Assembly: GCF_000018105.1 (NCBI RefSeq)
Contig: NC_009925.1
Location: 690,001 to 722,000 of the forward strand
Direction: 5' to 3'
Source: Acaryochloris marina MBIC11017
Lineage (GTDB): Bacteria; Cyanobacteriota; Cyanobacteriia; Thermosynechococcales; Thermosynechococcaceae
Length of the DNA stretch: 32,000 bases
Shown here: one piece after another, positions 687 through 26,003 of the stretch
Position numbering within the stretch: position 1 is the stretch's first letter
Layout: each line of letters starts with the position of its first letter
Made by a program: the position numbers and the translations under genes
Notes under the pieces: model-generated
The model's input: only the letters and a program-made list of their open reading frames with translations
The model's database searches: none
What the model was told of the DNA's origin: nothing

Positions 687-694
687 CAAGACTT
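687..694. repeat. Target-site duplication (caagactt), left copy, of the IS256-family element
   Basis: An identical 8-mer is present at 2041..2048, immediately outside the opposite terminal inverted repeat. Confidence 0.8.
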
Positions 695-2040: not shown

Positions 2041-2048
2041 CAAGACTT
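2041..2048. repeat. Target-site duplication (caagactt), right copy, of the IS256-family element
   Basis: It is identical to 687..694. Confidence 0.8.
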
Positions 2049-8918: not shown

Positions 8919-11268
8919 ACCTATGTTTACCTCCGGGGGAACGGTCCAAGCTGGAGATGGCATTTATCTAGAACGCAAGGCGGATCAAGAATTACTGGCT
9001 CTCTGTCAGGCAGGGAACTTTGTTTATATCCTTACCCCTCGACAGATGGGGAAATCGAGCTTAATGGTGCGAACGGCTCAAACCTTAGCCAGTCAGGGCA
9101 TTCAATCGGTAATTATTGACTTGACCCAGATTGGCACAGAGTTGGCGGCGGAGCAGTGGTATCTGGGATTCCTAACGCTGATCGAAGAACAGCTAGATCT
9201 AGAGACGGATGTAGAGGCGTGGTGGGAGTCGAAAGCAAAGTTAGGGGTGACCCAACGACTCACGCAGTTTTTTCAAACGGTTCTGCTCAAGGAGATAGAC
9301 AAACCCGTCGTTCTCTTTGTGGATGAAATTGATACGACATTGGGACTGGAGTTTACGGATGATCTATTTACCGCGATTCGTTTTCTCTACGTCGCTCGGG
9401 CTCACCAACCGGAAATGAAGCGGCTCTCAGTGGTGTTGATTGGGGTGGCGACGCCAGGGGATTTGATTCGAGATGCGAGAAGAACGCCGTTTAATATTGG
9501 CCATCGGGTGGATTTAACGGATTTCACCGTTGAGGAGGCAATGCCCTTAGCGGCTGGATTTGGCCTATCGGAAGAAAAGGCGCAAAGACTGTTGGGCAAG
9601 GTGTTGGCTTGGACGGGGGGGCATCCCTATCTGACTCAGCGACTTTGTGAGTCTTTGGTGAATGAGTGGTCTGGCTCCTTAGGGGAAGCTGATGTAGATA
9701 GAGCCGTGGGCCAAACTTTTTTGGGGGAGCGAAGCGAACAGGAGAATAACCTGCAGTTTGTCCGGGATATGCTGACCAAACGGGCCCCTGAGCCAAAGAA
9801 GTTGGTGTTAGAAACCTATCGGCAAATCCATCGGGACAAGGTGGCGGTCGCAGATGAGGAGCAATCTTTAGTTAAGTCTCATCTTAAGCTGGCAGGTGTG
9901 GTGCAGTTGGAAGGGCACCACCTGAAGGTTCGGAATCCGGTTTACCGAGAAGTCTTTGATTCCCAATGGATTCAGGACCATTGGCCCGAGACGCGTTGGC
10001 AGCGGTTAAAGCCAGCATTACCCTATATAGCTGGTTTATCCGCTGTTTTATTTGGCGTTACGGGATTGGCTGTTTATGCCATTGATCAAAGTGATAAAGC
10101 CTTAAAGGCTGAAGCAATAGCTGAGCAGAAGGCTAAAGAAACTGAAGTTGCTCTTGAACAATCTCGCAAAAATGAAACAGCTGCAGAAGCTGCCGCCCGT
10201 GAGGCGCAAAGACAAAAGAAACTGGCGCAAACATCGGCATCCCTGGCAAGGCGACGGTTGCAGCAAGTGAATACTGCCCGCAAGAGGGAAGTCCTAGAAA
10301 GGGAAAAGGCTCAAAAAGCCCAGAAGCTGGCAGAACGCCGACAGAGGGAAGCGGAAGCCCAGAAAAGCATTGCGATTGAGCAAAGAGCAGTTGCAGAACA
10401 GCAAAGAATTGCTGCTGAACAGGCAACGGCAAGAGAAAAAGAACAAACCATAGTTGCACGAAAGGCTACGCAACGCGCAGAAACGCAAGCCAAGTTAGCT
10501 ACTTTGAAAGAACAGGCCGCTTCAGGTTTGTATTGGCTTTCTGCGACGAATCCTACTTTTGGTTTTGTATTAGCCATTGACACAATGAATCAGAGTCAAT
10601 CTATTTCTGATGTTGAGGTAGTTGCCCAATCGGTTCTCCTTAAATCGATCCAACGGGTACAAGAAATAAAGCTGCTGCAAGGCCACCAGGCTGCTGTCTT
10701 GTCGGTGTCCTATAGCCCGGATGGAACGCGCATCGTCAGTGGGAGTTTGGACAATACCGTGCGCATTTGGGATGCCAAGACCGGGCAACCCATCGGAGAG
10801 CCCCTCCAAGGCCACCAGAATACTGTCTGGTCGGTGTCCTATAGCCCGGATGGAAGGCGCATCGTCAGTGGGAGTAGTGACAATACCGTGCGCATTTGGG
10901 ATGCCAAGACCGGGCAAGCGATCGGAGAGCCCCTCCAAGGCCACCAGAATGATGTCTATTCGGTGTCCTTTAGCCCGGATGGAACGCGCATTGTCAGTGG
11001 GAGTAGGGACAAGACCGTGCGCATTTGGGAAGTTGGCCCTGAGTCTTTAACTCGATTAGCTTGTGATCGGTTCAGGTTGCATCCCTTACTTCATCAGCCT
11101 GAGAAAGTTACTTCAGATCCATCTATTATTGAGGCAGCCATCCGTTCCAAGGCGGTTTGCAAACAACATTTCCCTGCTTGGGATTCCTACCGAGCATCCC
11201 AACCCGGATTCCCTAAATGGCTATTCAGTCGTTTCCAACAACTTTTGGCCGATTGGCTCAACACTTAA
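8911..11268 (+). CDS. AAA-like (AAA_35-type) ATPase / single TM helix / long coiled coil / WD40 repeats
   Basis: Walker A is TPRQMGKSS (Lys codon 9052..9054) and Walker B is VLFVDEID. A hydrophobic helix ALPYIAGLSAVLFGVTGLAVYAI maps to 10015..10083. An A/E/K/Q/R-rich segment of about 140 aa maps to 10090..10521. Three GH...WD units start at 10681. The ATG at 8911 overlaps the upstream stop (ATGACTAG); an in-frame ATG at 8884 is the alternative start. Confidence 0.8.
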   Translation: MTRPMFTSGGTVQAGDGIYLERKADQELLALCQAGNFVYILTPRQMGKSSLMVRTAQTLASQGIQSVIIDLTQIGTELAAEQWYLGFLTLIEEQLDLETDVEAWWESKAKLGVTQRLTQFFQTVLLKEIDKPVVLFVDEIDTTLGLEFTDDLFTAIRFLYVARAHQPEMKRLSVVLIGVATPGDLIRDARRTPFNIGHRVDLTDFTVEEAMPLAAGFGLSEEKAQRLLGKVLAWTGGHPYLTQRLCESLVNEWSGSLGEADVDRAVGQTFLGERSEQENNLQFVRDMLTKRAPEPKKLVLETYRQIHRDKVAVADEEQSLVKSHLKLAGVVQLEGHHLKVRNPVYREVFDSQWIQDHWPETRWQRLKPALPYIAGLSAVLFGVTGLAVYAIDQSDKALKAEAIAEQKAKETEVALEQSRKNETAAEAAAREAQRQKKLAQTSASLARRRLQQVNTARKREVLEREKAQKAQKLAERRQREAEAQKSIAIEQRAVAEQQRIAAEQATAREKEQTIVARKATQRAETQAKLATLKEQAASGLYWLSATNPTFGFVLAIDTMNQSQSISDVEVVAQSVLLKSIQRVQEIKLLQGHQAAVLSVSYSPDGTRIVSGSLDNTVRIWDAKTGQPIGEPLQGHQNTVWSVSYSPDGRRIVSGSSDNTVRIWDAKTGQAIGEPLQGHQNDVYSVSFSPDGTRIVSGSRDKTVRIWEVGPESLTRLACDRFRLHPLLHQPEKVTSDPSIIEAAIRSKAVCKQHFPAWDSYRASQPGFPKWLFSRFQQLLADWLNT
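10681..11029 (+). repeat. Tandem 129-bp (43-codon) WD40 repeat units, 2.7 copies, about 92% identical at DNA level
   Basis: Units start at 10681, 10810 and 10939. Units 1 and 2 differ at 10 nt, confined to 6 codons. Confidence 0.9.
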
Positions 11269-12060: not shown

Positions 12061-13074
12061 TTACTTGGAAGTAACCTTAGAGCGCTCTGGAGTAACGGGA
12101 ATAGGCACCGCAGAATTCAACTTAGGTGAGAAGCGAACACTCAATTTTTGGATAAACATCCACACCGGCAATCCAAACAGTTGGTAAGCATGAAACATCG
12201 TGGCAATTACGACGCTTTGTGCCAAAGGAACCCCCATACCATTCAGAGAAAACGCCAAGGCCGCTTCATAGGTGCCCAAGTTTGCCATCGTGGTTGGCAC
12301 CGTCAGCCCCAAATTCAGAATAAATAGACAAATTAAAAGCTGCGGTAAAGACAGAACATGGCCTTGAGCCATACACAATAGCTGTAGCAGCAGACATTCC
12401 GTAAACCAATCCCCCAAATCCATGACCGCAGCATTGCGAATTTGGAGAGGATTACGAATCACCGCCAGTCCGACCTTAAACTTACGAAGCCACTGCCGTA
12501 GCTTTGGGAACCGTTGGCGCAAACTTCGTTGAAGTGCCCACAGGGCTATCCCCAGAAAAGGAACGCCGATCAGAACAATAATGCCTTTCTCCCACCAATC
12601 AACCTGGGGTAGACCAACAGAAACTTGTAAGGCCGATAGCACTGCCAAAGTGACCAAGATGCCCACATCCAGCACCTTATCCACTAAAATAACCGCCGTG
12701 GCTTCAGCCGCATCAATCTTGCGGCCCTTCGCATCTTTATCCTTGCGCAACAGGGCAATTTTGACGGCATGTCCAGCTTGGCTCAGCACGAAATTGCCAA
12801 TAAACTGTCCCGACACGTAGGTATTCGCTGCTTGTGCCCAACTCACCCCAGCCGCTTGGGGACAAAGCACCCATAAACGAGTTACCTGAAACACCATTTG
12901 CACCAAGGTAACCCCTAGCATTAGCACAAGCGCTTCGGGACTAAACCGCTGAAAGGCTTCTAGCAAATCACGGCCTTGGAGATTGATTTTTTGAAAGAGA
13001 AAAGTGAGTCCGAGTCCAACGCAAAACAGCATTAAGAGACGGACAAACGTTTTCTTATGCCAAAACTTATTCAT
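12061..13074 (-). CDS. Flippase-like / lysyl-PG-synthase TM-region family (UPF0104) integral membrane protein
   Basis: The product is polytopic and ends with TVPTTMANLGTYEAALAFSLNGMGVPLAQS, which resembles the P-x-x-P-G-G-x-G-x-x-E region of this family. The ATG at 13074 (MNKFWHKK) is preferred over the TTG at 13209. Confidence 0.55.
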   Translation of the reverse strand: MNKFWHKKTFVRLLMLFCVGLGLTFLFQKINLQGRDLLEAFQRFSPEALVLMLGVTLVQMVFQVTRLWVLCPQAAGVSWAQAANTYVSGQFIGNFVLSQAGHAVKIALLRKDKDAKGRKIDAAEATAVILVDKVLDVGILVTLAVLSALQVSVGLPQVDWWEKGIIVLIGVPFLGIALWALQRSLRQRFPKLRQWLRKFKVGLAVIRNPLQIRNAAVMDLGDWFTECLLLQLLCMAQGHVLSLPQLLICLFILNLGLTVPTTMANLGTYEAALAFSLNGMGVPLAQSVVIATMFHAYQLFGLPVWMFIQKLSVRFSPKLNSAVPIPVTPERSKVTSK

Positions 13075-13853
13075 GGATTTGCAGCAAGATGAGACTTGGC
13101 ATGAGCGGTTGAATGGGGGAATAACAACTTTGATATCTGCATGATTCGTCTCCTTCTCCACTGTTGGGTCTAATGCTCTACCTAGAGATGCTGATCGCCA
13201 ATTCTCCAATCATTCGTTTTAATTTGGGAAAAAGTTATCTGCATCATCTCTCTATACAAACGCGTGGTTTTGAGTAGAATCATCCTGTGACCTGGACAAT
13301 CAAAGCTTAGATCAACCAATATAAATGGATTGTTTTTTCAGATCTGAACTTGTCCCCCTTGAATCCAGGGAAGTCATTATTTCTAAGGGTTGACTTCTCC
13401 AAGATGAACAGACTTTTAGAGGCTTAATCCCCCTTGTATTTTGTAGCCATTATCCCTTTTTAGGGAGCGTTTGTCTTGGCAGCAAGTTCTGAGAAGTACG
13501 ATGCAACAGCCTCAAAACTTAGGAATTCCCTGCCTGGGACTTAAGCCAAAAACGCATCCTCACTCATCATTAACTATCGCTAGTATGGACAGGGAAAATG
13601 TGATTTCTGAGTCGCATATGCAACAAAATTGACCGTCACAGTTGATCGTCAAATCCATCTTTTAGAAGGAACTAGAGAGGCAATGGCCCGTCCAGGGAAG
13701 AGCCATTTACTGCCATCTGTACGCCAGAATACTTGAAGTCTAAAGCATCCCTAAACTACAGTAATGTGATGCAGATCCGCCTTCATTGTGATGCAAGTAC
13801 TAGCGGGTTTAGATGCTCAAATTTAGGATTTTGCTACTGCAGATTTTGACCCT

Positions 13854-15647
13854 ATGACCCAACCCTCAACTCTAGTCGACTTACTGCGAGAGCGGTCTCA
13901 GCTCCAGTCTGATTTAACGGCCTATACCTTTTTGGCCGACGGCAAAAACGAATCCGGGACTCTCACCTACGCCACCTTGGATTTGCAAGCTCGGGCAATT
14001 GCAGCCGCAATACAGGCCCTAACCGCCCGAGGCACAAACGTTCTGGTCGTTTATCCCTACGATGCCGGACTCGAATTTGTATCCGCATTTTTTGGCTGTC
14101 TCTATGCCGGGGTGGTAGCGGTTACTGATAATCCCCCCCGGAAACCTGAAGCCATTGCCAAGCTCCAAATTCGGGCGAAAGCCTCGGAAGCCACGGTGTT
14201 GGTTTCCACTGCAGGATTTTTGGAGCATCTGAAAAACCAGATGAAAAAGAATCCCGATTTAGCCCCGTATTTGAATCAATTGACCTGGCTGGCAACGGAT
14301 ACTGTACCCACGGATCAAGCCTCTACCTGGACCCAGCCGGAGTTAGAAACCGATACTCTAGCCTTCCTCCAATACACCTCGGGTTCCACTGGAGATCCGA
14401 AAGGGGTGATGGTTACCCACGGCAATATGCTCCATAACTCCAAGATGATTTATGAGAGCTTTGGCCATTCCGACCAGAGTCAGGGGGTGATTTGGCTGCC
14501 TCTGTTTCACGATATGGGGTTAGTGGGGGGTGTCCTCCAGCCTTTATATGGTGGCTTTCCGGTGACCTTGATGTCGCCGATTGCCCTGATCCAAAAACCG
14601 ATTTTGTGGTTAGAAGCCGTATCTAAATATGGGGCAACCACCAGCGGTGGACCCAACTTTGCCTACGATTTACTCTGCCAGAAGGTGAAGCCGAAGCAGC
14701 GAGACCAGCTAGATCTAAGTAAATGGGAAGTGGCCTTTTCCGGGGCAGAACCGATCAAAGCTGATACCCTCGATAAGTTTGTGGACTTCTTTGGTCCCTG
14801 TGGCTTCCGGCGAGAAGCTTTTTACCCCTGCTATGGTATGGCTGAAACGACCCTCTTTATTTCTGGGGGCCTGAAGTCAGAATCACCCATCGTTCGCTAT
14901 CTCGACAGTACGGCCCTGGCTGACAACAAGGTGGTTCCTGTGGAACCAGAATCTGACAAAGCCCAGGCCATTATCGGCTGTGGCCGCATGTGGTTAGGGG
15001 ATAAGGTTGCGATCGCAAATCCCGATACCCTGACAAAATGTGCGGAAAACCAAGTCGGTGAGATTTGGGTTGCCGGGGATGGCGTCGGCAAAGGGTACTG
15101 GAACAGACCCGACGTCACCGCCGAGGCCTTTCAGGCCCACTTAGCCGATACGGGCGAAGGACCCTTCCTGCGAACCGGAGATTTAGGCTTTGTCCAGGAT
15201 GGCGAAGTTTATATCACGGGCCGGATTAAAGATTTGATGATTATCTGGGGCCGAAACCAATATCCCCAGCTCATTGAACAGACCGTGGAGCAATGCCATC
15301 CCGCTCTCCGGCCTAATCATGGTGCCGCTTTTTCCATTCCCCTCAATGGTGAAGAGCATTTGGTGATTGTCCATGAGGTGGAACGAAACTTTTTCCGACG
15401 CCTCCCCGTCGAAGAGGTTATCGGAGCGATTCGTTTAGCCATTGCCGAGGACCATATGGCTGAAGTCTATGCCGTATTGCTCCTCAAGCCAGGTGCAATT
15501 CCCAAAACCTCTAGTGGCAAAATTCAACGCCGGGCTTGTCGGACTAAATTTTTAGAAAGCAGCTTTCAACCTGTTGCCGAGTGGAAACAAGAAACCCAAG
15601 GCAATATCTCCGATTTGATGGCGCCTATGGCTGCGAATCAACCGTAA
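13854..15647 (+). CDS. Fatty acyl-AMP ligase (FAAL, FadD32-like adenylating enzyme), copy 1
   Basis: The N-terminus is LVDLLRERS...TYATLDLQARAIAAA...GLEFVSAFFGCLYAGVVAV. Further motifs are LAFLQYTSGSTGDPKGVMVTHGN, GGPNFAYDL, YGMAETTL and IPKTSSGKIQR. Confidence 0.85.
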   Translation: MTQPSTLVDLLRERSQLQSDLTAYTFLADGKNESGTLTYATLDLQARAIAAAIQALTARGTNVLVVYPYDAGLEFVSAFFGCLYAGVVAVTDNPPRKPEAIAKLQIRAKASEATVLVSTAGFLEHLKNQMKKNPDLAPYLNQLTWLATDTVPTDQASTWTQPELETDTLAFLQYTSGSTGDPKGVMVTHGNMLHNSKMIYESFGHSDQSQGVIWLPLFHDMGLVGGVLQPLYGGFPVTLMSPIALIQKPILWLEAVSKYGATTSGGPNFAYDLLCQKVKPKQRDQLDLSKWEVAFSGAEPIKADTLDKFVDFFGPCGFRREAFYPCYGMAETTLFISGGLKSESPIVRYLDSTALADNKVVPVEPESDKAQAIIGCGRMWLGDKVAIANPDTLTKCAENQVGEIWVAGDGVGKGYWNRPDVTAEAFQAHLADTGEGPFLRTGDLGFVQDGEVYITGRIKDLMIIWGRNQYPQLIEQTVEQCHPALRPNHGAAFSIPLNGEEHLVIVHEVERNFFRRLPVEEVIGAIRLAIAEDHMAEVYAVLLLKPGAIPKTSSGKIQRRACRTKFLESSFQPVAEWKQETQGNISDLMAPMAANQP

Positions 15648-15720: not shown

Positions 15721-16494
15721 ATGAATGTTCTCAGTCAACCGGATGGAAATTGGCAGGCCAAAATTCGCCAACGCTTTCTCAAGGCAGCCGAGCAGCTCCT
15801 GCGGCGATTCGAAGGTCTGATCGAGTCCCACTCCCTCGTGGGCAATACGCCGTTTATCGAGGCTCAATCGTTCCCCTGGGTCAAGCAGCTAGAGCATAAC
15901 TGGCCCACCATTGCTCAAGAATTAGATGACATTCTTCAGTATCAGGATGAGCTGCCCAATTTCCAAGATTTATCGCCGGATCAGTATCGTCTCACCCAAG
16001 ACGATCGCTGGAAAACCTTTTTCTTCTATGCCTTTGGCGTCAAAGCGGCCCAAAACTGCGCCCGCTGTCCTCAAACCAGCCAGCTGATTGAATCGATTCC
16101 GGGGATGAAAACGGCCTTTTTCTCGATTCTGTTGCCCCAGAAACATATTCCCGAGCATTGCGGGGTCTTTAAAGGGGTCGTCCGGTACCATCTGGCTCTG
16201 AAAGTGCCTCAACCGGAGACCCAATGTCGTCTCCGGGTGGCGGACCAAATTCGCCATTGGCAACAGGGACAAGGGTTAATCTTTGATGATCGATTTCCCC
16301 ATGAGGTTTGGAACGATAGCGACGAGGTGCGGGTCGTCCTGATTATTGATGTGGTCCGTCCTCTTCAGTTCCCCGTCTCCCTCCTCAATCAGACCCTGAT
16401 TCGCCTGATTTCCTGGTCGCCCTTTGTCCAGGATGCTAAAAAGCTGCAAAACCAGTGGGAAAAGCGCTTAGGTGCCATTATGAAATCCCACTAA
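15721..16494 (+). CDS. Aspartyl/asparaginyl beta-hydroxylase family (AspH/LpxO-like Fe(II)/2OG oxygenase), paralog 1
   Basis: It reads CPQTSQLIESIPGMKTAFFSILLPQKHIPEHCG...VRYHLALKVP...IFDDRFPHEVWNDSDEVRVVLIIDVVRP. I recall human ASPH as HTGPTN...FDDSFEHEVW, which this resembles. Confidence 0.75.
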   Translation: MNVLSQPDGNWQAKIRQRFLKAAEQLLRRFEGLIESHSLVGNTPFIEAQSFPWVKQLEHNWPTIAQELDDILQYQDELPNFQDLSPDQYRLTQDDRWKTFFFYAFGVKAAQNCARCPQTSQLIESIPGMKTAFFSILLPQKHIPEHCGVFKGVVRYHLALKVPQPETQCRLRVADQIRHWQQGQGLIFDDRFPHEVWNDSDEVRVVLIIDVVRPLQFPVSLLNQTLIRLISWSPFVQDAKKLQNQWEKRLGAIMKSH

Positions 16495-16557
16495 TCCAAT
16501 TCTGGTGTCTGGCTCAGGCATCAAGATTAAGGATTTATTAATATAGTCAACACATGA

Positions 16558-17304
16558 TTGGAAGATAGTCCCGTGAAAGAATTTCTCGAAACTTTAATGC
16601 GTCAGCATATTGGGGGTTTGGTTTCGCGTTCGTCCCTCGTGGGCCACCAAACCTTCTTTGACCCCAGTATCTTTAACTGGATTCCGCTTTTGGAAAAAAA
16701 CTGGCGCACCATTCGCCAGGAACTAGAACAGGTTCTCCAATATAAAGAGGCATTGCCCAATTTTGAAGAATTGGTGGAGTACGATGCCGACCTCACCAAA
16801 GATACCCAGTGGAAAATGTTCGCCTTCTACGCCTATGGGATTAAGGCCGAAAAAAATTGTGATCGCTGCCCGGAAACCACCCGGCTGATCGAACAAATCC
16901 CCGGGTTAAAAACCGCTTTTTTCTCGATCTTGCTGCCTCACCAGCGCATCCCCCCCCACCGAGGCCCTTATAACGGAGTGCTGCGTTATCACCTCGGCCT
17001 GATGGTCCCAGAGGCCACGGACCAATGCGGCATCCGCGTTGGCAAGGATATTCGCCATTGGCAAGAAGGCCAAAGCCTCGTCTTTGATGATTCCTTCGAA
17101 CATACGGCCTGGAACGACACGGATAGTGTCCGCGTCGTCCTGTTTTTGGATGTGGTCCGACCCGTCAAATTTCCTATTTCTCTGTTGAATCAAGCCGTGA
17201 TTCAGCTCTTTTCTTTGTCCCCCTATATTCAAGGCGCAGCCGCCAATCAAAAGAAGTGGGACAAGCGATTGGATGCCGTATTGGCAGCGAAAGGGACCCA
17301 ATAG
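16558..17304 (+). CDS. Aspartyl/asparaginyl beta-hydroxylase family oxygenase, paralog 2
   Basis: It reads CPETTRLIEQIPGLKTAFFSILLPHQRIPPHRGPYNGVLRYHLGLMVP...VFDDSFEHTAWNDTDSVRVVLFLDVVRP. The start is uncertain: TTG 16558, GTG 16573 or ATG 16597. Confidence 0.75.
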   Translation: MEDSPVKEFLETLMRQHIGGLVSRSSLVGHQTFFDPSIFNWIPLLEKNWRTIRQELEQVLQYKEALPNFEELVEYDADLTKDTQWKMFAFYAYGIKAEKNCDRCPETTRLIEQIPGLKTAFFSILLPHQRIPPHRGPYNGVLRYHLGLMVPEATDQCGIRVGKDIRHWQEGQSLVFDDSFEHTAWNDTDSVRVVLFLDVVRPVKFPISLLNQAVIQLFSLSPYIQGAAANQKKWDKRLDAVLAAKGTQ

Positions 17305-17377
17305 CGCCGTGACAGATCATGGTGTACATTGGCTGGAGTGTTAATGCGCCCGATTGTTGATTTCTAAGCCCTAACTT

Positions 17378-18160
17378 ATGAGTGCATTGAGCCAGTTTTA
17401 CACCGATTTCAAAACCAAAAACCGTGAGGTTGCCCTCAAAGCAGGGGAAGGCTTGTTGCGTCAGTTGGAGCGCATCATTCGAACCTCTTCCCTAGTGGGC
17501 AACTCAACCTTCTTCGATCCTGATCAGTTTGAATGGGTCAAAACCTTCGAAGATAACTGGCAGGTGATTCGGAAGGAACTCGATGAGATTCTCAAATATA
17601 GAGACGACCTGCCGAATTTCCAAGATATTTCCCCGGATCAGTACAACATAACCAATGATCAGCGCTGGAAAACCTTTTTCTTCTATGCCTATGGGGTGAC
17701 GGCAGAGCAAAACTGCCGCCTCTGCCCGGAAACGGCCAAGCTGTTGTCCAGTATCCCCGGGGTTAAAACGGCTTTTTTCTCGATTTTGCTGCCCCAAAAG
17801 CAAATCCCGCCCCACCGAGGTCCCTTTAATGGCGTGTTGCGCTACCATTTGGGCTTGATCATCCCTGAGGCTGCCTCAGACTGTGGGATTCGGGTGGGAG
17901 ACGATGTCCGCCATTGGCAAGAAGGCAAAAGCCTCGTGTTCGATGACTCCTTCGAGCATGAAGCCTGGAATAATACCGATGAAGTTCGGGTGGTCCTCTT
18001 TGTCGATATTGTCCGTCCCCTCAAATTCCCTGCGTCCCTGCTGAATCAATTTATTATTCAGCTGATTGCCTGGTCTCCCTATATCAAGGATGCCGAAACC
18101 AATCAAAAGAAATGGGACCAGCGGTTACAAGGGCTGTTCAAATCGAAAACGAATTCATAA
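17378..18160 (+). CDS. Aspartyl/asparaginyl beta-hydroxylase family oxygenase, paralog 3
   Basis: It reads CPETAKLLSSIPGVKTAFFSILLPQKQIPPHRGPFNGVLRYHLGLIIP...VFDDSFEHEAWNNTDEVRVVLFVDIVRP. Confidence 0.75.
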   Translation: MSALSQFYTDFKTKNREVALKAGEGLLRQLERIIRTSSLVGNSTFFDPDQFEWVKTFEDNWQVIRKELDEILKYRDDLPNFQDISPDQYNITNDQRWKTFFFYAYGVTAEQNCRLCPETAKLLSSIPGVKTAFFSILLPQKQIPPHRGPFNGVLRYHLGLIIPEAASDCGIRVGDDVRHWQEGKSLVFDDSFEHEAWNNTDEVRVVLFVDIVRPLKFPASLLNQFIIQLIAWSPYIKDAETNQKKWDQRLQGLFKSKTNS

Positions 18161-18173
18161 TCCTGTAGTCAGG

Positions 18174-20054
18174 ATGGAGTATAACGTGGCTGAAACAACC
18201 AATTGGGACGCCAAGGTCGAAGGAACCTGTCCGCCAAAGGTAGACAGTTTGGTGGATCTGCTCCGCTATCGAGCGACTCACCAGCCAGACCATAAAGGCT
18301 TTACCTTTCTCGTCGATGGTGAAGACGAAACCCTCCATCTCACCTATGCAGAGCTGGATGCCAAAGCCCGTGCGATCGCAGCTGCGTTACAGTCGGCCTG
18401 TCAACCGGGTGATCGAGCCCTATTGGTTTATCAGCCTGGATTAGAATATGTGGCCGCTTTCTTTGGCTGCCTCTATGCGGGCGTCACGGCAGTCCCCATT
18501 TATCCACCCCGTCCGAATCGCTCCCTGATGCGATTGCAGAGTGTGATCGCGGACTCCCAAGCCATTTTTGCCCTGACCACCTCTCAAATTCTGTCGAAGC
18601 TAGAACGACAGTTGATTGATGCCCCAGAGTTAAGGGCCCTAAAGTGGTTGGCCACTGATAGTCTTAGCGTCACCGAACCTCGTCAAGCTTGGCAAGAGAT
18701 TCATCCCCAAGGTCAAGATTTAGCCTTTCTTCAATACACCTCTGGCTCAACCGCAACGCCCAAAGGGGTGATGATTACCCATCACAATCTGTTGCAGAAC
18801 CTGGCGCTGATTCATCAATGCTTTGAGCATAGTTCTCAGTGCCAAGGCGTGATTTGGCTACCGCCCTACCACGATATGGGCTTGATCGGCGGGATTTTGC
18901 AGCCTTTATACGGCGGGTTCCCCGTGGCCCTGATGTCTCCCTTTATGTTTTTACAGAGTCCCATTCGCTGGCTGCAAGCCATTTCTCGCTATCGGGCGAC
19001 CACCAGTGGGGGACCAAATTTTGCCTACGATTTATGTTTGCGCAAGATCAAGCCAGAACAGATTGAAACCCTAGATCTAAGCTCCTGGCGGGTGGCCTTT
19101 AATGGCGCAGAACCCATCAGTGCTCAAACCCTCGAAGACTTTGCCACCAAGTTTGCATCCTGTGGATTTCGGCCTGAAGCCTTTTTCCCCTGTTATGGCC
19201 TTGCCGAAGCCACCCTGATCGTTTCTGGGGGACAGAGACAGGCTAAACCTGCGCTTAAAACGGTCCAAGGGGCAGCCTTAGAACAACATCAAGTCGTCTC
19301 TGCTCACTTAGGAGATACAGATGCTCGCACCTTAGTGGGCTGCGGTACTGCTCTCCAAGGCCAAGAAATTGTGATCGCCAATCCTGAAACCCTCCAACAA
19401 TGTTCAGCCGAAGAAGTCGGCGAAATTTGGGTGTCTGGCCAAAGCATTGCCCAGGGATACTGGCGGCAATCGGAAGTATCTGGGGAAACCTTTCAGGCCC
19501 ATTTGGCCGATACCGGAGCTGGCCCCTTTTTACGCACCGGAGACTATGGCTTTTTGGTGGGTTCCGAGCTGTTTGTGACCGGACGCCTAAAGGACGTGAT
19601 TATCATCAATGGCCGCAATCATTATCCCCAGGACATTGAGTTGACCGTCGTCCAAAGCTATCCGGGGATTCGACCCAATTGTGCTGCAGCGTTTTCGATT
19701 ACGGAAGCCGGGGAAGAACGGCTAGTCGTAGTGGCGGAATTGGAGCGGAACTATATCAATCGCTATCAAAAAAATGGCAAGAAGCCCTCTTCCCAACCGC
19801 CTCAGCTCAATAATTTTGTCCCCCCCACCAGCCTGACTGAGGAATCAGAACCCGCTGCCGTCGAAAAAGATATTCTCACTCAAATCCGTCGAGCCGTTGC
19901 CAAAGACCATGACCTGCAGATTCATGCCCTGCTGCTGCTCAAACCCGGCAGTATTCCCAAGACCTCTAGTGGTAAAATCCAGCGGTTTACCTGTAGAGCC
20001 AAGTTTCTAGAGGGAGACCTAGAGAGCGTGGCCAAGAGTGTGCCCCGCGCCTAA
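18174..20054 (+). CDS. Fatty acyl-AMP ligase (FAAL), copy 2
   Basis: It reads LVDLLRYRATHQPDHKGFTFL...LTYAELDAKARAIAAAL...GLEYVAAFFGCLYAGVTAVPIYPPRPNRS, then LAFLQYTSGSTATPKGVMITHHN and IPKTSSGKIQR. The ATG at 18174 (MEYNV) avoids overlap with the upstream hydroxylase; the track start at 18066 is rejected. Confidence 0.85.
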   Translation: MEYNVAETTNWDAKVEGTCPPKVDSLVDLLRYRATHQPDHKGFTFLVDGEDETLHLTYAELDAKARAIAAALQSACQPGDRALLVYQPGLEYVAAFFGCLYAGVTAVPIYPPRPNRSLMRLQSVIADSQAIFALTTSQILSKLERQLIDAPELRALKWLATDSLSVTEPRQAWQEIHPQGQDLAFLQYTSGSTATPKGVMITHHNLLQNLALIHQCFEHSSQCQGVIWLPPYHDMGLIGGILQPLYGGFPVALMSPFMFLQSPIRWLQAISRYRATTSGGPNFAYDLCLRKIKPEQIETLDLSSWRVAFNGAEPISAQTLEDFATKFASCGFRPEAFFPCYGLAEATLIVSGGQRQAKPALKTVQGAALEQHQVVSAHLGDTDARTLVGCGTALQGQEIVIANPETLQQCSAEEVGEIWVSGQSIAQGYWRQSEVSGETFQAHLADTGAGPFLRTGDYGFLVGSELFVTGRLKDVIIINGRNHYPQDIELTVVQSYPGIRPNCAAAFSITEAGEERLVVVAELERNYINRYQKNGKKPSSQPPQLNNFVPPTSLTEESEPAAVEKDILTQIRRAVAKDHDLQIHALLLLKPGSIPKTSSGKIQRFTCRAKFLEGDLESVAKSVPRA

Positions 20055-20418
20055 AAGAAAATAGCAACTCTTGGAACTTTTGCAGGCAAAAAGTCAGTCT
20101 CAACTTACACACTTATCTCAGGAAGGACATCAGCCATGCTTACCATGAGTCAGTTTCAATTGACGCAACCTTGATCACTTTTCCCCCCTCTGGACTAAGT
20201 TATAACTACCCTATAGCGGCAAGGGAATAGACCGATCAGCGGCATTACTAAGGAGATTGGAACATTTAGTTTCTGAGATTTTAAAGAATGGGCCAATTGA
20301 TTAATCTCTACATGCCACCTTGTTGCTGTTAAATAAATCTTTTATGATGAACCGAAGTTTTAACTTAAATTCACAATTCGGTTTAACCTGTTGTCTAAGC
20401 AATTAGAGTAAAAACAAT

Positions 20419-20874
20419 ATGCCAATCCAGGATAACTATCAAAGCACGGTCGCTGTGGCGGAAGCACAGCCTCAGGGCGCTGTTTCGCCCTTGGAGACTT
20501 CCCCTAAACTAGCAGATATTCAAGCCTGGTTAAAAAAACACTTGGCAACTTCTTTGGAAATGAGTCCAGAGGAAATTGATATCGATGTGGATTTCATTGA
20601 TTACGGAATGAACTCCGTAGAAGTCGTCAATATTTCCGGTGAACTAGAACATTTTCTGGGTCGCCGTTTGGATCCCATGCTGGTTTTAGATTATTCCAAT
20701 ATTCGTGAATTATCAGAGCACCTAGTAACCGATAATGAAGGCAGTTCTCCCACTACTTCAGCATTACCCACAGAAGCCGATGAACTCCTATCCAAATTGG
20801 ATGTACTGAGTGACGATGAAGTGGATGGTCTGCTGAACGCGATGTTGTCAGAGCATAATGTTGCCCATGAGTAA
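20419..20874 (+). CDS. Stand-alone acyl/peptidyl carrier protein (PP-binding) with N- and C-terminal extensions
   Basis: The sequence DVDFIDYGMNSVEVVNISGELEHFLGRRL fits the DxxFxxxGxDS carrier motif, with the candidate phosphopantetheine Ser66 at 20614..20616. The protein is 151 aa with an acidic tail, and the gene overlaps the next gene by 17 nt. Confidence 0.7.
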   Translation: MPIQDNYQSTVAVAEAQPQGAVSPLETSPKLADIQAWLKKHLATSLEMSPEEIDIDVDFIDYGMNSVEVVNISGELEHFLGRRLDPMLVLDYSNIRELSEHLVTDNEGSSPTTSALPTEADELLSKLDVLSDDEVDGLLNAMLSEHNVAHE

Positions 20875-22192
20875 TTCCTCTAATTCCCTGGATCATCTCT
20901 CCGCAGAAGAAAAGCGCGAATTGCTGGCGGAATTATTGCAGAAAAAAGCCGACGCTGAACCTGAGATTCCTCCCGAGCACTATCGCTTCGATCTCTACCC
21001 TGAATATCTCCAGCTCAAAGAGCAACAAGCCCAACTGCAGGCGAATGATATCCGCAACCCTTATTTCTCCGTCCATGAAGGGATTGCCCGAGATACCACC
21101 CGCATTGATGGAAAAGAGCTGATCAACTTCTCCAGCTACAACTATTTAGGGCTAGCCGGACATCCGACGGTTTCTGAAACAGCTAAACAAGCCATTGACC
21201 GCTACGGCACTTCGGTGTCAGCCAGCCGCCCCGTTTCTGGTGAGAAACCCTTACATTTAGAGCTTGAGCAAGGAATTGCAGACTTTATTGGTGTAGATGA
21301 CGCCGTTCTTTACGTCGCGGGTCACGGTACCAACGTCACAACCATTGGGCATTTATTTGGCCGTAATGACCTGATTCTTTACGATGCCTATAGTCACAAC
21401 AGTATTTTTCTTGGCTGTGTACTGTCGGGCGCTCGGGCCATGTCGTTTGCCCATAATGATGTAGCCGATCTAGAAAGACTTTTAAAGCAGCATCGTCATC
21501 GCTATCAGCGAGTTCTGGTAGTGATTGAAGGGGTCTACAGTGCCGATGGCGACATTCCTGAATTACCTAAATTTATTGAACTCAAAGAACGCCACAAAGC
21601 TTTTCTGATGGTGGATGAAGCCCACTCGATTGGTGTTTTGGGCGAACATGGTCAGGGTATTAGCGAGCATTTTGGCATTGACCCCAAAACGGTCGATATT
21701 TGGATGGGCACCCTTAGTAAGTCCTTTGCCAGCTGTGGCGGATATATTGCCGGTTCTCAGCCCCTGATTGAATATCTCAAATGTACGGCACCGGGATTTA
21801 TCTATAGTATTGGCATTACCCCTGCCAATACGGCGGCCTCTTTGGCGGCGCTACAAGTTTTGAAACAAGAACCTGAACGCGTAGCTAGGCTCCATGCTCG
21901 GGCTCAGTTGTTCCTCGACTTGGCTAAAGAAAAAGGATTGAATACTGGTACCAGTCACGGTTCAGCGGTGATTCCGGTGATGGTGGGGGAGACCCTTAAA
22001 GCCCTGCACTTGTCGCAGCAGCTATTTCACCAAGGGATTAATGTTCAGCCCATGACCTTCCCGGTGGTGCCCCAAAACGAGGCTCGACTTCGCTTTTTCC
22101 TCAGCAGCACCCATACGGAAGCGCAAATTCGCCAAACCGTAGAGACCCTCGCTGCTGCCCTAGCTCATATTGAGACTGAAATCCCTGCCTAA
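20858..22192 (+). CDS. PLP-dependent alpha-oxoamine synthase (serine palmitoyltransferase / BioF / KBL family)
   Basis: It has NFSSYNYLGLAGHP, MVDEAHSIGVLGEHGQG and GTLSKSF, with the PLP lysine codon at 21719..21721. The N-terminal extension reads NPYFSVHEG...IDGKELI. Confidence 0.85.
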   Translation: MLPMSNSSNSLDHLSAEEKRELLAELLQKKADAEPEIPPEHYRFDLYPEYLQLKEQQAQLQANDIRNPYFSVHEGIARDTTRIDGKELINFSSYNYLGLAGHPTVSETAKQAIDRYGTSVSASRPVSGEKPLHLELEQGIADFIGVDDAVLYVAGHGTNVTTIGHLFGRNDLILYDAYSHNSIFLGCVLSGARAMSFAHNDVADLERLLKQHRHRYQRVLVVIEGVYSADGDIPELPKFIELKERHKAFLMVDEAHSIGVLGEHGQGISEHFGIDPKTVDIWMGTLSKSFASCGGYIAGSQPLIEYLKCTAPGFIYSIGITPANTAASLAALQVLKQEPERVARLHARAQLFLDLAKEKGLNTGTSHGSAVIPVMVGETLKALHLSQQLFHQGINVQPMTFPVVPQNEARLRFFLSSTHTEAQIRQTVETLAAALAHIETEIPA

Positions 22193-22206: not shown

Positions 22207-22878
22207 ATGGCTGAAGTAGTGTGGATTGCGCGGCATGGCCATCGGCAAGATTATGCTGACTTAGGCTGGCGAAAACGGGCAGAACGTCCCCATGACCCAG
22301 GTCTTTCGGCTGCAGGAGTAGTGGAGGCTCAAGATCTGGCTCAGTGTCTTAAGTCAGAATCCATTGAGCATATCGTTGCCTCCCCTTTTTTACGAACTGT
22401 TGTAACAGCCGCTCATACAGCAACGGCGCTAGCTTTGCCGATCCAGCTTGAAGCCGGTCTAGGGGAACATATGAGCTCCAAGCTGTTTAAGCATCGTCCA
22501 GAACCACTGCCTGTCGATGAAATGGCCGATCGATTCCCTCAAGTTGATCGACTCTACCAGAGCCAAATTATTCCTCCTTTTCCAGAAACAGAAGAAGAAG
22601 CGCTCGCTCGAGCCGGAAAAGCACTGCAGCAATTATTGGACACCTTTTCAGGGCCGCTGCTGATTGTTACCCATGAGTTGATTGGCAAAGGAGCGGTTTG
22701 GGGGCTGGTCAATCAACGCCCTCCCGTTCGCTTTCCCACCTGTAGCTTAACCAAACTGGTCCATGAGCAGGGAGAATGGAAGATGGCTTTTACGGGCAAA
22801 ACTTCCCATCTCAGCCAGCCCCGCCACCCGATTCCAGAGATCTGGAATTATCTATTACGGCAAATTGTTCATCGCTAA
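22207..22878 (+). CDS. Histidine phosphatase superfamily (phosphoglycerate-mutase-like) protein
   Basis: It has the N-terminal RHG motif (VVWIARHGHRQDY) and a distal LLIVTHE histidine. Confidence 0.7.
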   Translation: MAEVVWIARHGHRQDYADLGWRKRAERPHDPGLSAAGVVEAQDLAQCLKSESIEHIVASPFLRTVVTAAHTATALALPIQLEAGLGEHMSSKLFKHRPEPLPVDEMADRFPQVDRLYQSQIIPPFPETEEEALARAGKALQQLLDTFSGPLLIVTHELIGKGAVWGLVNQRPPVRFPTCSLTKLVHEQGEWKMAFTGKTSHLSQPRHPIPEIWNYLLRQIVHR

Positions 22879-22932: not shown

Positions 22933-23754
22933 ATGGACTTTAATCAGCGCCATATCATGATTACGGGTGGATCGAGTGGCATTGGTAAAGCCACTGCCTG
23001 CCTCCTTGCCAATCAGGGGGCCAATCTCTCCTTGATTGCTCGCACACCGAGTCAATTAGACATCGCAGTCCAGGAGATTACAGCGGCTCAGGTCCAGTCA
23101 GACCAGCAGGCTTTAGCATTCGCAGCAGATGTAGCTGACCGAGAAGCCTCAACTCAAGCCATCCAAACCGCAACGGCTCAACTGGGACCGCCCGATATTT
23201 TAATTACCGCTGCAGGGATAGCTCGTCCAGGCTATTTTCAAGAAATACCGCTAGAGGTTTTTGAGCAAACGATGGCGGTCAACTACTTTGGTACCTTGTA
23301 TGCGATCAAAGCGGTTTTGCCCCTTATGGAGGAACGTCAGCGGGGGCATATTGTGTTGATTTCGTCAGGGGCAGGACTGGTAGGACTCTTTGGTTATACC
23401 CCCTATAGCCCTAGTAAGTTTGCACTGCGGGGGTTGGCCGAATCTTTACGGGGAGAACTGAAAGGGATTGGAATTGGTTTATCGATTGTTTATCCCCCCG
23501 ATACCGATACACCTCAACTGGAAGCAGAGAATAAAACCAAGCCTCCAGAAACAAAAAATATCACCGCCTCGGCGGAGATGTGGCAACCGGAAGCTGTGGC
23601 CCAAGAGATTGTCAAAGGGATTAAACACCAAAAGTTTGTGGTGGCGCCTGGTTTAGAAATGGGGCTATTGGCTAAGCTGCACAGTGTTTTAGCCCCAGGG
23701 CTGAACTGGTATTTTGATCGGATTGTTACGAAGACGAGATCGCAATCCTCTTAA
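22933..23754 (+). CDS. Short-chain dehydrogenase, 3-ketodihydrosphingosine reductase (KDSR/FVT1)-like
   Basis: It reads [11 protein letters not shown]...[15 protein letters not shown]...[24 protein letters not shown]. I recall human KDSR as [10 protein letters not shown]...YSASKFAIRGLAEAL...[24 protein letters not shown], and the two track along the whole length. Confidence 0.75.
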   Translation: [273 protein letters not shown]

Positions 23755-25040: not shown

Positions 25041-26003
25041 ATGGACAGCGAAATGATAGCAACAACATCAACCCCGCCCGATCAGGGGTCACAAGAACAG
25101 TGGGCCTTGACCCTATCGATTATGGGATCCGCCGTCTTTGCCGTTTTGGGTGGGGTGTTTGGACTCTATACCCATTCTGGCGCTATCTTGCTGGACGGGT
25201 TTTATTCCCTGATGACCATGACCATGAGCTTTGTCAGTCTCAAGGTGGCAGCCCTAATCCAGGAAGGTCCCAGTCGGCGTTACCAGTTTGGCTATTACGG
25301 TTTTGAGCCTTTTATTAACACGATTAAAGGCATCATTGTTCTATCGGTTAGTTTGTTCGCTTTCGTTTCTGCGATAGAAGACTTACTGCATGGCGGTCGA
25401 GATCTTGTCGTGGGCCTAGCCTTGGCTTACGCGACCCTATCAACAGTCGGGTGTTTTACCTTCGCCATCTTGATGCATCGCTATGCTCAACGGTTGAACT
25501 TACCGTTGCTGGAGGTGGAAGCCCGGGACTGGACAGTAGATGGCTGTATCAGTAGCGCGGTAGCGTTGACCTTTGTAGTGACTTTGTTGCTGCAAGAAAC
25601 CTCCTGGAATATTTATCTCTCTTACGTTGACCCGCTGCTGGTTTCCATATTGGTGCTGATTATTATTCCGCTGCCCTTACGTACCGTATTTGAAGGCGTG
25701 AATCAGTTATTAGGGGTTGCTCCAGAAAGTGAGTTGGATCGAGAGATTCGCAAGACCATTTCCCAAGTTGCCCGCATTCAAAAACACCCCATCGATCGCT
25801 TTCATTTGCAGATGATGGTGCAAGGACGGGTGTTGTATGTGTTTATTCAGATCTTGGTCCCTGCTGAGTTTGGGGTGGATCGGGTGCAAGAACTAGACCA
25901 ACTGAGGCAGAAGTTTGCGGATGCGATCGCAGATTTACATCCATTTCCAGAAATCGATATTGTATTTACGGAAGATCCCTATTGGCTTAAAGATGGCCAA
26001 TAG
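25041..26003 (+). CDS. Cation diffusion facilitator (CDF) family transporter
   Basis: The product has six hydrophobic segments, reads SGAILLDGFYSL...RYQFGYYGFEP, and has a C-terminal cytoplasmic-domain-like region. It starts 6 nt after the MTase stop. Confidence 0.7.
   Translation: MDSEMIATTSTPPDQGSQEQWALTLSIMGSAVFAVLGGVFGLYTHSGAILLDGFYSLMTMTMSFVSLKVAALIQEGPSRRYQFGYYGFEPFINTIKGIIVLSVSLFAFVSAIEDLLHGGRDLVVGLALAYATLSTVGCFTFAILMHRYAQRLNLPLLEVEARDWTVDGCISSAVALTFVVTLLLQETSWNIYLSYVDPLLVSILVLIIIPLPLRTVFEGVNQLLGVAPESELDREIRKTISQVARIQKHPIDRFHLQMMVQGRVLYVFIQILVPAEFGVDRVQELDQLRQKFADAIADLHPFPEIDIVFTEDPYWLKDGQ

Follow-up and report, generated by a model that had tools for sequence, protein, structure and literature searches.

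AspH, OlsC and LpxO are 2-oxoglutarate (2OG) oxygenases of a single family, and all of them hydroxylate a carbon next to a carbonyl. To our knowledge, AspH/OlsC-type dioxygenases have so far been shown by experiment to act only on EGF domains, ornithine lipids and lipid A. Here we analyze three genes of this family, named H1, H2 and H3, that are found in tandem in Acaryochloris marina MBIC11017, within a stretch of 32,000 nucleotides (NC_009925.1, positions 690,001 to 722,000) that we call the window.

OlsC, the 2-hydroxylase of the ester-linked acyl chain of ornithine lipid in Rhizobium tropici, shares with H1-H3 the PF05118 fold, a length of about 250-260 aa and the absence of transmembrane (TM) segments, and by analogy a hydroxylation of the carbon beside the acyl carbonyl of a membrane lipid would be expected also for H1-H3. 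However, OlsC is present in one copy, whereas H1-H3 are three diverged tandem copies in a cyanobacterial cluster of fatty acyl-AMP ligase (FAAL), acyl carrier protein (ACP), oxoamine synthase (AOS) and SDR genes, with no ornithine-lipid genes nearby. LpxO, the lipid A 2-hydroxylase, belongs to the same family and has the same His...His and Arg residues, but LpxO of K. pneumoniae is only 27% identical and carries hydrophobic membrane segments at both termini, which H1-H3 lack. The closest solved structure is the oxygenase domain of human AspH (sequence E-value 2.7e-27), which has the same two-His iron site and R-X-S 2OG site; in contrast to AspH, H1-H3 do not conserve the residues that bind Asp and the EGF domain, and they have in addition a long amphipathic N-terminal helix and further C-terminal helices. 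No structure of LpxO or OlsC was found in PDB searches.

The second term of comparison is given by the bacterial sphingolipid pathways. In Rhodobacteria the route is composed of Spt, a dedicated ACP and an acyl-ACP synthetase (PMC9386255), and in P. fluorescens MYb115 of a PKS/AOS(SgaB)/SDR cluster (PMC12134224). The shared logic, which is predicted also here, is that an adenylating enzyme or a PKS loads the carrier, an SPT-like AOS carries out the condensation and reduction of the 3-keto group falls to an SDR. The Acaryochloris cluster differs in having two FAALs, three AspH-type hydroxylases, a His phosphatase and no recognisable ceramide synthase. The ceramide acyl hydroxylase of Caulobacter belongs to the DesA family and not to the AspH type (PMC11324152). 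In the sphingolipid literature that we found, cyanobacteria are not listed among the producers, and our searches returned nothing on the Acaryochloris cluster or on sphingolipid hydroxylases of the AspH type.

Judged by its genes, the cluster looks built for a sphingolipid-like aminolipid, and thus H1-H3 probably hydroxylate that lipid. We favour, with moderate confidence, the reading that H1-H3 are Fe(II)/2OG lipid hydroxylases of the OlsC/LpxO branch, soluble or peripheral, with diverged roles in a cluster for a sphingoid- or ceramide-like aminolipid.

Results and Discussion

Three complete hydroxylase genes between two FAAL genes

H1 (15721..16494, forward strand) encodes a protein of 257 aa, scoring 180 bits with PF05118 (Asp_Arg_Hydrox) and 261 bits with the OlsC model; H2 (16573..17304, forward strand) encodes 243 aa, with 192 and 266 bits, and H3 (17378..18160, forward strand) 260 aa, with 201 and 293 bits. 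The genes are complete and arranged head to tail, with a FAAL gene on either side. The PF05118 model is covered from position 1 to 157 of 157 by all three proteins, and their 180-201 bits compare with a Pfam cut-off of 22.6. The open reading frame of H2 is listed from a TTG at 16558, giving 248 aa; the ortholog in CCMEE 5410 is annotated with 243 aa, and the GTG at 16573 is the more likely start. Amino-acid identity in pairwise BLASTP is 54% between H1 and H2, 58% between H1 and H3 and 61% between H2 and H3, and the E-values, between 1e-98 and 1e-119, put the similarity far above chance; at the DNA level the identity is 64-70%, without long identical tracts.

A sequence-only reading of this DNA had described three consecutive paralogs of about 250 aa between two FAAL genes and had assigned them to the AspH/LpxO/OlsC-type 2OG oxygenases; both points are borne out by the reading frames (257, 243-248 and 260 aa), by the full-length PF05118 matches and by the intact catalytic residues. 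Of the four sequence blocks that it considered common to the three, KTAFFSILLP, RYHL.L..P and RVVL..D.VRP are in fact invariant, while H2, with FDDSFEHTAWN, departs from FDD.F.HE.WN at a single position. The contrast that it drew between H1 and the other two copies was found as described, with PEHCG in H1 against PPHRGP in H2 and H3, and RFPHE against SFEHE or SFEHT.

With respect to the curated families, the OlsC model NF052565, by which alone OlsC was represented, aligns with H1-H3 over positions 26-251 of 259, and its equivalog cut-off of 450 bits is missed by 160-190 bits. With the LpxO model NF033391 the scores are 114-146 bits, against an equivalog cut-off of 500. H1-H3 thus resemble OlsC more than LpxO in sequence and stay below both NCBIfam cut-offs, so that 2-hydroxylation of an acyl chain is suggested by analogy and not by a test. 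In the plasmid collection no PGAP-named OlsC was present among the 30 matches listed, a spread sample of 108, which were LpxO-named or generic entries.

Catalytic site and substrate residues

Neither the two iron ligands, H146 and H194, nor the four 2OG residues, R204, S135, H157 and R155, vary among H1-H3, and their counterparts in the alignment with AspH are H679, H725, R735, S668, H690 and R688, respectively; the roles of the AspH residues used for this mapping were taken from PMC6817910. H1-H3 have the DSBH fold, with a predicted two-His Fe(II) site and a predicted Arg/Ser/His/Arg site for 2-oxoglutarate. Superposition of the AF2 model of H3 (pLDDT 88.5) on the oxygenase domain of human AspH gave an rmsd of 2.1-2.5 A and a Foldseek E-value of 1e-16. 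TM segments were found in none of the three proteins, where no window of 19 residues exceeds a Kyte-Doolittle hydropathy of 1.6.

The match of the fold and of the two-His metal site with human AspH is what could suggest that H1-H3 are Asp/Asn beta-hydroxylases of proteins or peptides, of the AspH or lanthipeptide type, acting on the ACP, on a FAAL or on a small peptide; moreover, H2 and H3 converged on AspH-like residues at both histidines (PH.GP.N, SFEHE). We regard this function as highly improbable. H1-H3 are only 243-260 aa long and gave no Pfam match to a TPR domain, and the residues with which AspH binds its protein substrate, by the carboxylate of Asp and the backbone of the EGF domain (E615-E617 loop, Q627, K666 and R686), are all replaced: in H1-H3 K666 corresponds to F or a gap, Q627 to T or M, D616/E617 to Q/D and Y/A, and R686 to V. 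The neighbours are lipid enzymes, and the intergenic regions contain no plausible precursor-peptide reading frame: the candidates considered in the two long ones, 13210-13853 and 20055-20418, were mostly short reading frames starting with TTG or GTG, plus one ATG frame of 32 aa on the reverse strand, and were rejected.

The residues that distinguish the three copies are placed around the same site. H1 has E145, K151 and P193 beside the iron histidines, where H2 and H3 have the changes E to P, K to N and P to E. From the clade consensus, by which ancestral and derived states were called, the residues of H1 (motifs PEH..K and FPHE) appear to be mostly the ancestral state of the bacterial subfamily, and those of H2 and H3 derived and AspH-like. 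The sequence-only reading had set H1 apart by these positions; any change of specificity there would be in H2/H3 and not in H1. Beside the histidines, C147 and V149 alone are specific to H1, and HCG recurs in a homolog from Chthoniobacterales; further H1-specific residues are A65, G185 and I208. H2 has a shorter N-terminus, M, A, Q and T at positions conserved elsewhere, and a derived EELVEYD loop, a remodelled loop that by alignment would be equivalent to the substrate-binding loop of AspH.

Organization of the cluster

The gene order around the array is conserved: FAAL1-H1-H2-H3-FAAL2-ACP-SPT-like oxoamine synthase-His phosphatase-SDR, preceded by the gene of an MprF-type membrane protein. 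The MprF-type gene (12061..13209, reverse strand; LPG_synthase_TM, flippase-like, PF03706 94 bits) is divergently transcribed, keeps its place beside the cluster across Acaryochloris and is located upstream of FAAL1 in loci L001-L004, L080, L081, L083 and L085. Its product has 47 hydropathy windows above 1.6, and since the annotated orthologs have 323-340 aa, the listed TTG probably lies upstream of the true start.

FAAL1 (13854..15647, forward strand) and FAAL2 (18174..20054, forward strand) both match PF00501 and the FAAL models, those of NCBIfam in the case of FAAL1. The start of FAAL2 is placed at 18174 (the listed reading frame begins at 18066) because the annotated protein of CCMEE 5410 has 626 aa. 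FAAL1 is 61% identical to FAALa of Moorena, versus 50% to FAAL2, and is the ortholog of the Moorena FAAL located directly upstream of the lone hydroxylase of that cluster; the FAAL2 ortholog of Scytonema (L039) is fused to ACAD-ACP-AOS.

Downstream of FAAL2 are a stand-alone ACP (20419..20874, forward strand; PF00550 54 bits) and a PLP-dependent alpha-oxoamine synthase, SPT/BioF/Kbl-like (20858..22192, forward strand; PF00155). The latter scores 370 bits with the bioF model (cut-off 426) and 348 bits with the SPT model (cut-off 640), below both NCBIfam cut-offs, and its best solved relative in the PDB is the serine palmitoyltransferase of Sphingobacterium (E-value 5e-71). A histidine phosphatase of branch 1 (22207..22878, forward strand; PF00300 74 bits) follows, which is present in L006, L080 and L085, absent from L023 and Moorena, and counts as an accessory gene that only the Acaryochloris cluster has. 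The SDR ketoreductase (22933..23754, forward strand; PF00106 167 bits) is 65% identical to its Moorena counterpart and is the last conserved cluster gene in L085. Two genes beyond it were excluded from the cluster as absent in L085: the reading frame 23754-25034 (426 aa), an orphan type II DNA methyltransferase, and a CDF transporter (25041-26003), though the transporter follows the SDR in L023.

The cluster is probably co-transcribed, judging only by the shared strand and by gaps of 13-78 nt; the scans for promoter and terminator consensus did no better than on shuffled sequence and are therefore uninformative on operon structure. Rfam scans at gathering thresholds and tRNA scans gave nothing in the window. 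No N-acyltransferase or ceramide synthase (bCerS-like) was recognised in the cluster by the Pfam scan.

Related clusters in other genomes

The cluster is kept in at least six assemblies of Acaryochloris or Acaryochloridaceae. The Moorena cluster contains orthologs of both FAALs, of ACP-AOS and of the SDR, one hydroxylase, and in addition a GT21 gene (ceramide-glucosyltransferase family); in Scytonema a FAAL-ACAD-ACP-AOS fusion adjoins a single hydroxylase homolog, and the cluster of L084 has a single hydroxylase copy linked to a FAAL and/or an AOS. Of 79 loci from other phyla, 27, from Verrucomicrobiota and Actinomycetota, have an AOS homolog at most 2 kb from the hydroxylase homolog, a linkage which supports a lipid substrate. 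The neighbours of a Chthoniobacterales homolog are an AOS, a GNAT and two CDP-alcohol phosphatidyltransferases, and a homolog on a Pseudomonas plasmid sits among phospholipid and LPS genes. In the actinobacterial locus L033 the hydroxylase-AOS pair is alone, with unrelated flanks and no wider lipid cluster. The preference for a lipid over a protein context, already expressed from the sequence alone, is supported by the lipid-enzyme neighbours, by the recurrent linkage with FAAL and AOS and by the replacement of the AspH protein-substrate residues.

The lipid might nevertheless be made elsewhere in the cell, H1-H3 acting as true OlsC or LpxO on ornithine lipid, lipid A or another acyloxyacyl lipid. 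Such a role would agree with OlsC being the best curated match, with the name that JGI gives to homologs ('ornithine lipid ester-linked acyl 2-hydroxylase') and with the many cyanobacterial homologs that are stand-alone genes, without FAAL or AOS nearby. It is nonetheless quite unlikely in our judgement, given the distance of H1-H3 from the OlsC cut-off and the recurrence of the FAAL and/or AOS linkage in Acaryochloris, Moorena, Scytonema, L084 and the 27 loci of other phyla; moreover, the window contains no ols or lpx genes, the Pfam scan of its reading frames of at least 120 aa giving no ols-type acyltransferase.

Duplication history and selection

Trees were built by NJ only (numpy implementation) on a set of 202 taxa, with 200 bootstraps. 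Each of the three paralog clades is recovered in 200/200 bootstraps, and H2 and H3 are sisters in 181-188/200 (about 90%). A group of H1, H2 and H3, whether or not the metagenomic single-copy P0074 is included, is obtained in 27-80/200 (14-40%). Therefore, of the tandem triplication that the sequence-only reading had proposed, the H2/H3 duplication is clear from these trees, but the monophyly of all three copies gets just 14-40% NJ bootstrap; its closer pairing of H2 with H3 agrees with the tree and, marginally, with the identities (61% versus 58% and 54%).

All three paralogs are under strong purifying selection: across lineages with saturated dS, dN/dS is 0.04-0.09 for H1, 0.04-0.06 for H2 and 0.016-0.037 for H3, the most conserved of the three. 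Rows in which non-orthologs were compared, because a short contig did not contain the ortholog, were disregarded (H3 and FAAL2 of L003, H1 and FAAL1 of L006, and H2, H3 and FAAL2 of L004).

The long-term retention of three diverged, functionally constrained copies fits non-redundant roles. The opposite case would be that H1-H3 modify the same position of the same lipid and are kept for dosage or for particular conditions, such as O2 or iron in an ascidian or biofilm niche. In locus L005, an Acaryochloris MAG, H3 alone is retained and H1/H2 are reduced to a decayed remnant, so that two copies are dispensable in that lineage, which also fits partial redundancy; the single hydroxylase of the Moorena, Scytonema and L084 clusters and the identical catalytic residues of H1-H3 point in the same direction. 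Yet plain redundancy rarely lasts so long as 54-61% identity, saturated ortholog dS, fully supported clades and dN/dS below 0.1 imply, and the fixed clade-specific substitutions are concentrated next to the iron ligands and on what is predicted to be the equivalent of the AspH substrate loop. On balance we consider redundancy unlikely, though a serious alternative.

A possible pathway

Under the favoured reading, that of lipid hydroxylases with diverged roles, we infer what H1-H3 act on, with which regiochemistry, and how they share the work, as follows. FAAL2 would adenylate a fatty acid and load it on the ACP for the oxoamine synthase; this SPT-like enzyme would join the acyl chain to an amino acid in a condensation that yields a 2-amino-3-keto long chain, whose 3-keto group the SDR would reduce. 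FAAL1 might supply a second acyl chain, and the MprF-type protein would handle the lipid in the membrane. Since no N-acyltransferase or ceramide synthase is recognisable, the role of FAAL1 and the 'ceramide-like' nature of the product are guesses. By analogy with OlsC, LpxO and AspH, H1, H2 and H3 would each add a hydroxyl to the carbon beside a carbonyl, acting presumably on different chains, positions or intermediates. In this reading H1 retains the ancestral residues flanking the active site and the ancestral place just after FAAL1, and the later duplication gave H2 and H3, which share derived residues beside both iron histidines.

A bolder and rather doubtful extension is that Acaryochloris, Moorena and Scytonema make an undescribed sphingolipid-like lipid, a polyhydroxylated amino-alcohol or a ceramide-like one, through a FAAL-ACP-SPT-SDR route, and that enzymes of the AspH/OlsC type are, across phyla, an unrecognised class of sphingoid or ceramide hydroxylases that work with oxoamine synthases, three of them regiospecific in Acaryochloris, for example at C4 of the long-chain base, which is alpha to the 3-keto group, and at C2 of the acyl chains.

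Conclusions

The H1-H3 array is a modest variation on known enzymology, and if its copies were redundant the locus would be an ordinary expansion of a tailoring gene. Together, the three paralogs, the relatives with one copy and the natural deletion variant offer a compact system in which to ask how the iron-site flanks and the substrate loop determine specificity in a branch of enzymes that is still poorly characterised. If the product of the cluster is a hydroxylated sphingoid-like lipid, the range of sphingolipid-type chemistry would come to include cyanobacteria and the AspH/OlsC-type dioxygenases would gain a new class of substrates; in that case the pairing of hydroxylase and AOS in Actinomycetota and Verrucomicrobiota would indicate a general step of lipid hydroxylation that has escaped annotation.

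Three hydroxylase genes in a conserved, probable lipid cluster

The window encodes three intact, selected and soluble 2-oxoglutarate (2OG) oxygenases of the AspH fold and of an OlsC-like branch, within a conserved cluster of FAAL, ACP, alpha-oxoamine synthase (AOS) and SDR genes. The ORFs H1 (15721-16494, 257 aa), H2 (16558-17304, 248 aa) and H3 (17378-18160, 260 aa) lie on the same strand; the H2 ortholog of Acaryochloris sp. CCMEE 5410 is annotated with 243 aa, corresponding to a GTG start at 16573, and this strain also has a protein with 99% identity to H3. Each gives a full-model match to Pfam PF05118 (Asp_Arg_Hydrox; 180-201 bits), and pairwise amino-acid identities are 54% (H1-H2), 58% (H1-H3) and 61% (H2-H3), all with E <= 1e-98. 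With a DNA identity of 64-70% and no long identical tracts, nothing points to recent gene conversion. The conserved blocks quoted in the sequence-only reading are present, with the one exception of H2, which has FDDSFEHTAWN. An N-C-x-x-C-P motif is kept across 57 homologs, with C116 invariant and C113 at least 90% conserved (H1 numbering); a third cysteine, C169, is likewise invariant. These cysteines may have a disulfide, metal or redox function.

The gene order, on one strand, is FAAL1 (13854-15647), H1, H2, H3, FAAL2 (18174-20054), ACP (20419-20874), AOS (20858-22192), His phosphatase and SDR (22933-23754); the gaps next to the hydroxylase genes measure 13-78 nt. Both flanking genes do encode FAAL-type adenylases, as had been read, according to Pfam and NCBIfam, and share 51% identity. 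The nearest solved structure to AOS is Sphingobacterium serine palmitoyltransferase (5e-71), and none of the NCBIfam equivalog cut-offs is reached by AOS. Upstream, a divergently transcribed gene encodes a membrane protein of the MprF type (LPG_synthase_TM). The block is found again, with different flanking genes, in Acaryochloris/Acaryochloridaceae assemblies and metagenomic contigs (L001-L004, L006, L080-L083, L085), and in L085 the SDR is its last gene; thus the DNA methyltransferase and cation-efflux genes that follow the SDR in the window lie outside the cluster. This orphan type II methyltransferase (23754-25034, +; PADLOC MTase_II, 117 bits), located between the SDR and cation-efflux genes and with no restriction enzyme recognised nearby, is missing from the otherwise syntenic L085.

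The upstream flank in the window is completely unlike those of CCMEE 5410 (L080) and L085, and transposase genes or fragments occur at both window ends (219-3107 and 30392-31081): IS1-like (219-737 and 30392-31081), Mutator family (731-1981, -) and DDE_Tnp_1 (2319-3107). The cluster thus lies in a rearranging region. Elsewhere in the window, adjacent genes for a CHAT-TIR-AAA_35 protein (727 aa; PADLOC 'chat' and TIR matches) and an AAA_35-WD40 protein (794 aa) at 6735-11268 (+) look like a candidate NLR/STAND-type defence or signalling pair, and a PLD-family gene at 3681-4838 (-) has weak DrmC-like matches. In a stretch of low GC content (38% at 28-29 kb), a Radical_SAM N-terminal fragment (28345-28713, +) is followed by a separate SPASM-domain ORF (28824-29420, +); together they may represent a radical SAM/SPASM maturase gene that has been disrupted.

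History of the copies

In a neighbor-joining (NJ) tree of 202 homologs with 200 bootstraps, H1, H2 and H3 each form their own ortholog clade (200/200), and H2 and H3 are sisters in 181-188 of the 200 replicates. Together with their 61% identity, this bears out the earlier view that paralogs 2 and 3 are mutually closest, and H2/H3 are a clear duplication, older than the sampled Acaryochloris diversity. The proposed tandem triplication stands for this pair, but H1, H2 and H3 group together in no more than 27-80/200 replicates, a value that depends on inclusion of the single-copy metagenomic homolog P0074, which tends to join H1. H1 may thus share this duplication series or may be a FAAL-linked paralog of greater age.

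NG86 dN/dS values against true orthologs are low (H1 0.04-0.09, H2 0.04-0.06, H3 0.016-0.037) and similar to those of the FAALs and AOS, even at saturated dS, so all three paralogs are evidently maintained by selection. A rival explanation, in which the copies are redundant or kept for dosage, has these values against it and, in its favour, a deletion variant in Acaryochloris sp. IP29b_bin.137 (L005:2540-2900, equivalent to window 15739-17135, between FAAL1 and FAAL2). Here the deletion runs from H1 codon 7 to about H2 residue 190, the H2 remnant is decayed by a stop codon and indels, and H3 alone is intact.

Fold and active site

H1-H3 align end to end with the NCBIfam OlsC model (261-293 bits, missing the equivalog cut-off of 450) and score much lower with the LpxO model (114-146 bits, cut-off 500 also missed). 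Among solved structures, their only relatives are those of human AspH (E 2.7e-27). H3, modelled with AlphaFold2 (pLDDT 88.5), superposes onto the AspH oxygenase domain with an rmsd of 2.1-2.5 A (Foldseek E 1e-16), but the model has in addition a long helix at the N-terminus and further helices at the C-terminus. In H1 and H3 the N-terminal helix is strongly amphipathic (hydrophobic moment about 0.75), and the N-terminus is shorter in H2. No TM-like segment was found in any paralog; LpxO of K. pneumoniae, in contrast, has hydrophobic termini.

Residue roles were transferred by mapping onto the AspH structure paper (PMC6817910). The predicted iron-binding histidines H146 and H194 and 2OG-binding residues R204, S135, H157 and R155 are invariant in H1-H3, and all three therefore look catalytically competent. 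A rival explanation is a protein substrate; the residues with which AspH holds the Asp carboxylate and EGF backbone (D616/E617, Q627, K666, R686) are replaced, so that H1-H3 look unlike protein Asp/Asn hydroxylases.

Paralog 1 had been singled out as distinct beside both histidines. The difference is real, with H1 mostly keeping the ancestral state: some 160 homologs from outside these three clades have the consensus IPeHrGpyKG and FDDtfpHeaWN, which makes E145, K151 and P193 of H1 ancestral and P145, N151 and E193, common to H2 and H3, derived. The latter happen to match PHTGPTN and SFEHE of human AspH. Fixed changes specific to H1 are R147C, P149V, R65A, S185G and F208I. Those of H2 are concentrated in QDIS.DQ to EELV.YD, aligned with the acidic substrate-binding loop 614-620 of AspH; further H2 changes are K to Q, T to M at the Q627 equivalent, and E to T behind the second histidine. 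Comparable states are found again in other homologs (HCG in Chthoniobacterales, PPH..N in a Pseudomonas plasmid homolog), so these positions are hot spots of variation in the family, and plausibly specificity determinants.

Relatives outside Acaryochloris

Moorena producens JHB has a homologous but larger cluster (L087:65-15383, CP017708.2 6085520-6102290), ordered SDR, B12-radical SAM enzyme, ACP-AOS fusion, FAAL, hydroxylase, GMC oxidoreductase, epimerase-like SDR, second FAAL, GT21 (ceramide-glucosyltransferase family) and GT1. Both FAALs have orthologs there (61% and 60% identity), as do ACP-AOS (61%) and SDR (65%), and the single hydroxylase gene comes directly downstream of the FAAL1 ortholog; the cluster suggests a glycosylated aminolipid product. 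Scytonema HK-05 encodes a FAAL-ACAD-ACP-AOS fusion of 1708 aa, with a FAAL2-like FAAL, next to a hydroxylase homolog; this supports FAAL2-ACP-AOS as a chain-loading and condensation module. Metagenomic contig L084 carries MFS-FAAL-hydroxylase and nothing more of the cluster.

Outside cyanobacteria, at most 2 kb separates the hydroxylase homolog from an AOS homolog (33-40% identical to the window AOS) in 27 of the 79 retrieved genome loci, mainly in Chthoniobacterales/Verrucomicrobiota and Acidimicrobiia/Actinomycetota. The Chthoniobacterales locus L013 (9998-14818), ordered hydroxylase, AOS, CDP-alcohol phosphatidyltransferase, GNAT and CDP-alcohol phosphatidyltransferase, resembles a cluster of the phosphosphingolipid type; no published description of an AspH-type hydroxylase in such hydroxylase-AOS clusters was found. 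A single hydroxylase homolog is directly beside AOS also in L014, L015, L022, L025, L027 and L028, and at about 20 Actinomycetota loci (L033-L077); in L033 conservation is limited to this pair. The Pseudomonas plasmid homolog, with 55% identity, has cytidylyltransferase, CDP-alcohol phosphatidyltransferase, acylglycerol-kinase-family and lptFG genes as neighbours. An unrelated lipid as substrate is a further rival explanation, and many cyanobacterial homologs stand alone; despite these, the linkage across all these loci taken together supports a membrane lipid tied to oxoamine-synthase chemistry. The Acaryochloridaceae cyanobacterium SU_2_1 MAG has a stand-alone member (L010:737-1459, 60% identity to H3) in addition to cluster copies (L023:350-1081), so a fourth paralog may exist in the family Acaryochloridaceae, separate from the cluster.

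Proposed pathway and meaning

LpxO and OlsC hydroxylate the carbon adjacent to a carbonyl. AspH chemistry is likewise (PMC6817910). From the named families, FAAL2 would load ACP, AOS would yield a 2-amino-3-keto long chain, SDR would reduce it, FAAL1 would contribute a second acyl group, and H1-H3 would hydroxylate carbons adjacent to a carbonyl, speculatively each at its own position or on its own intermediate. The loading, condensation and reduction steps parallel both the Spt/ACP/ACS route of Rhodobacteria (PMC9386255) and the P. fluorescens SgaB/SDR cluster (PMC12134224). In Caulobacter, for comparison, the enzyme that hydroxylates ceramide belongs to the DesA family (PMC11324152).

H1-H3 are new members of a known enzyme family, with the chemistry expected for it. 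What goes beyond the described OlsC, LpxO and AspH cases is the triple arrangement, the setting in a cyanobacterial oxoamine-synthase lipid cluster and the cross-phylum hydroxylase-AOS linkage, none of which was found in the searchable literature. The hydroxylase triplet in a lipid cluster is a real finding and gives a testable hypothesis.
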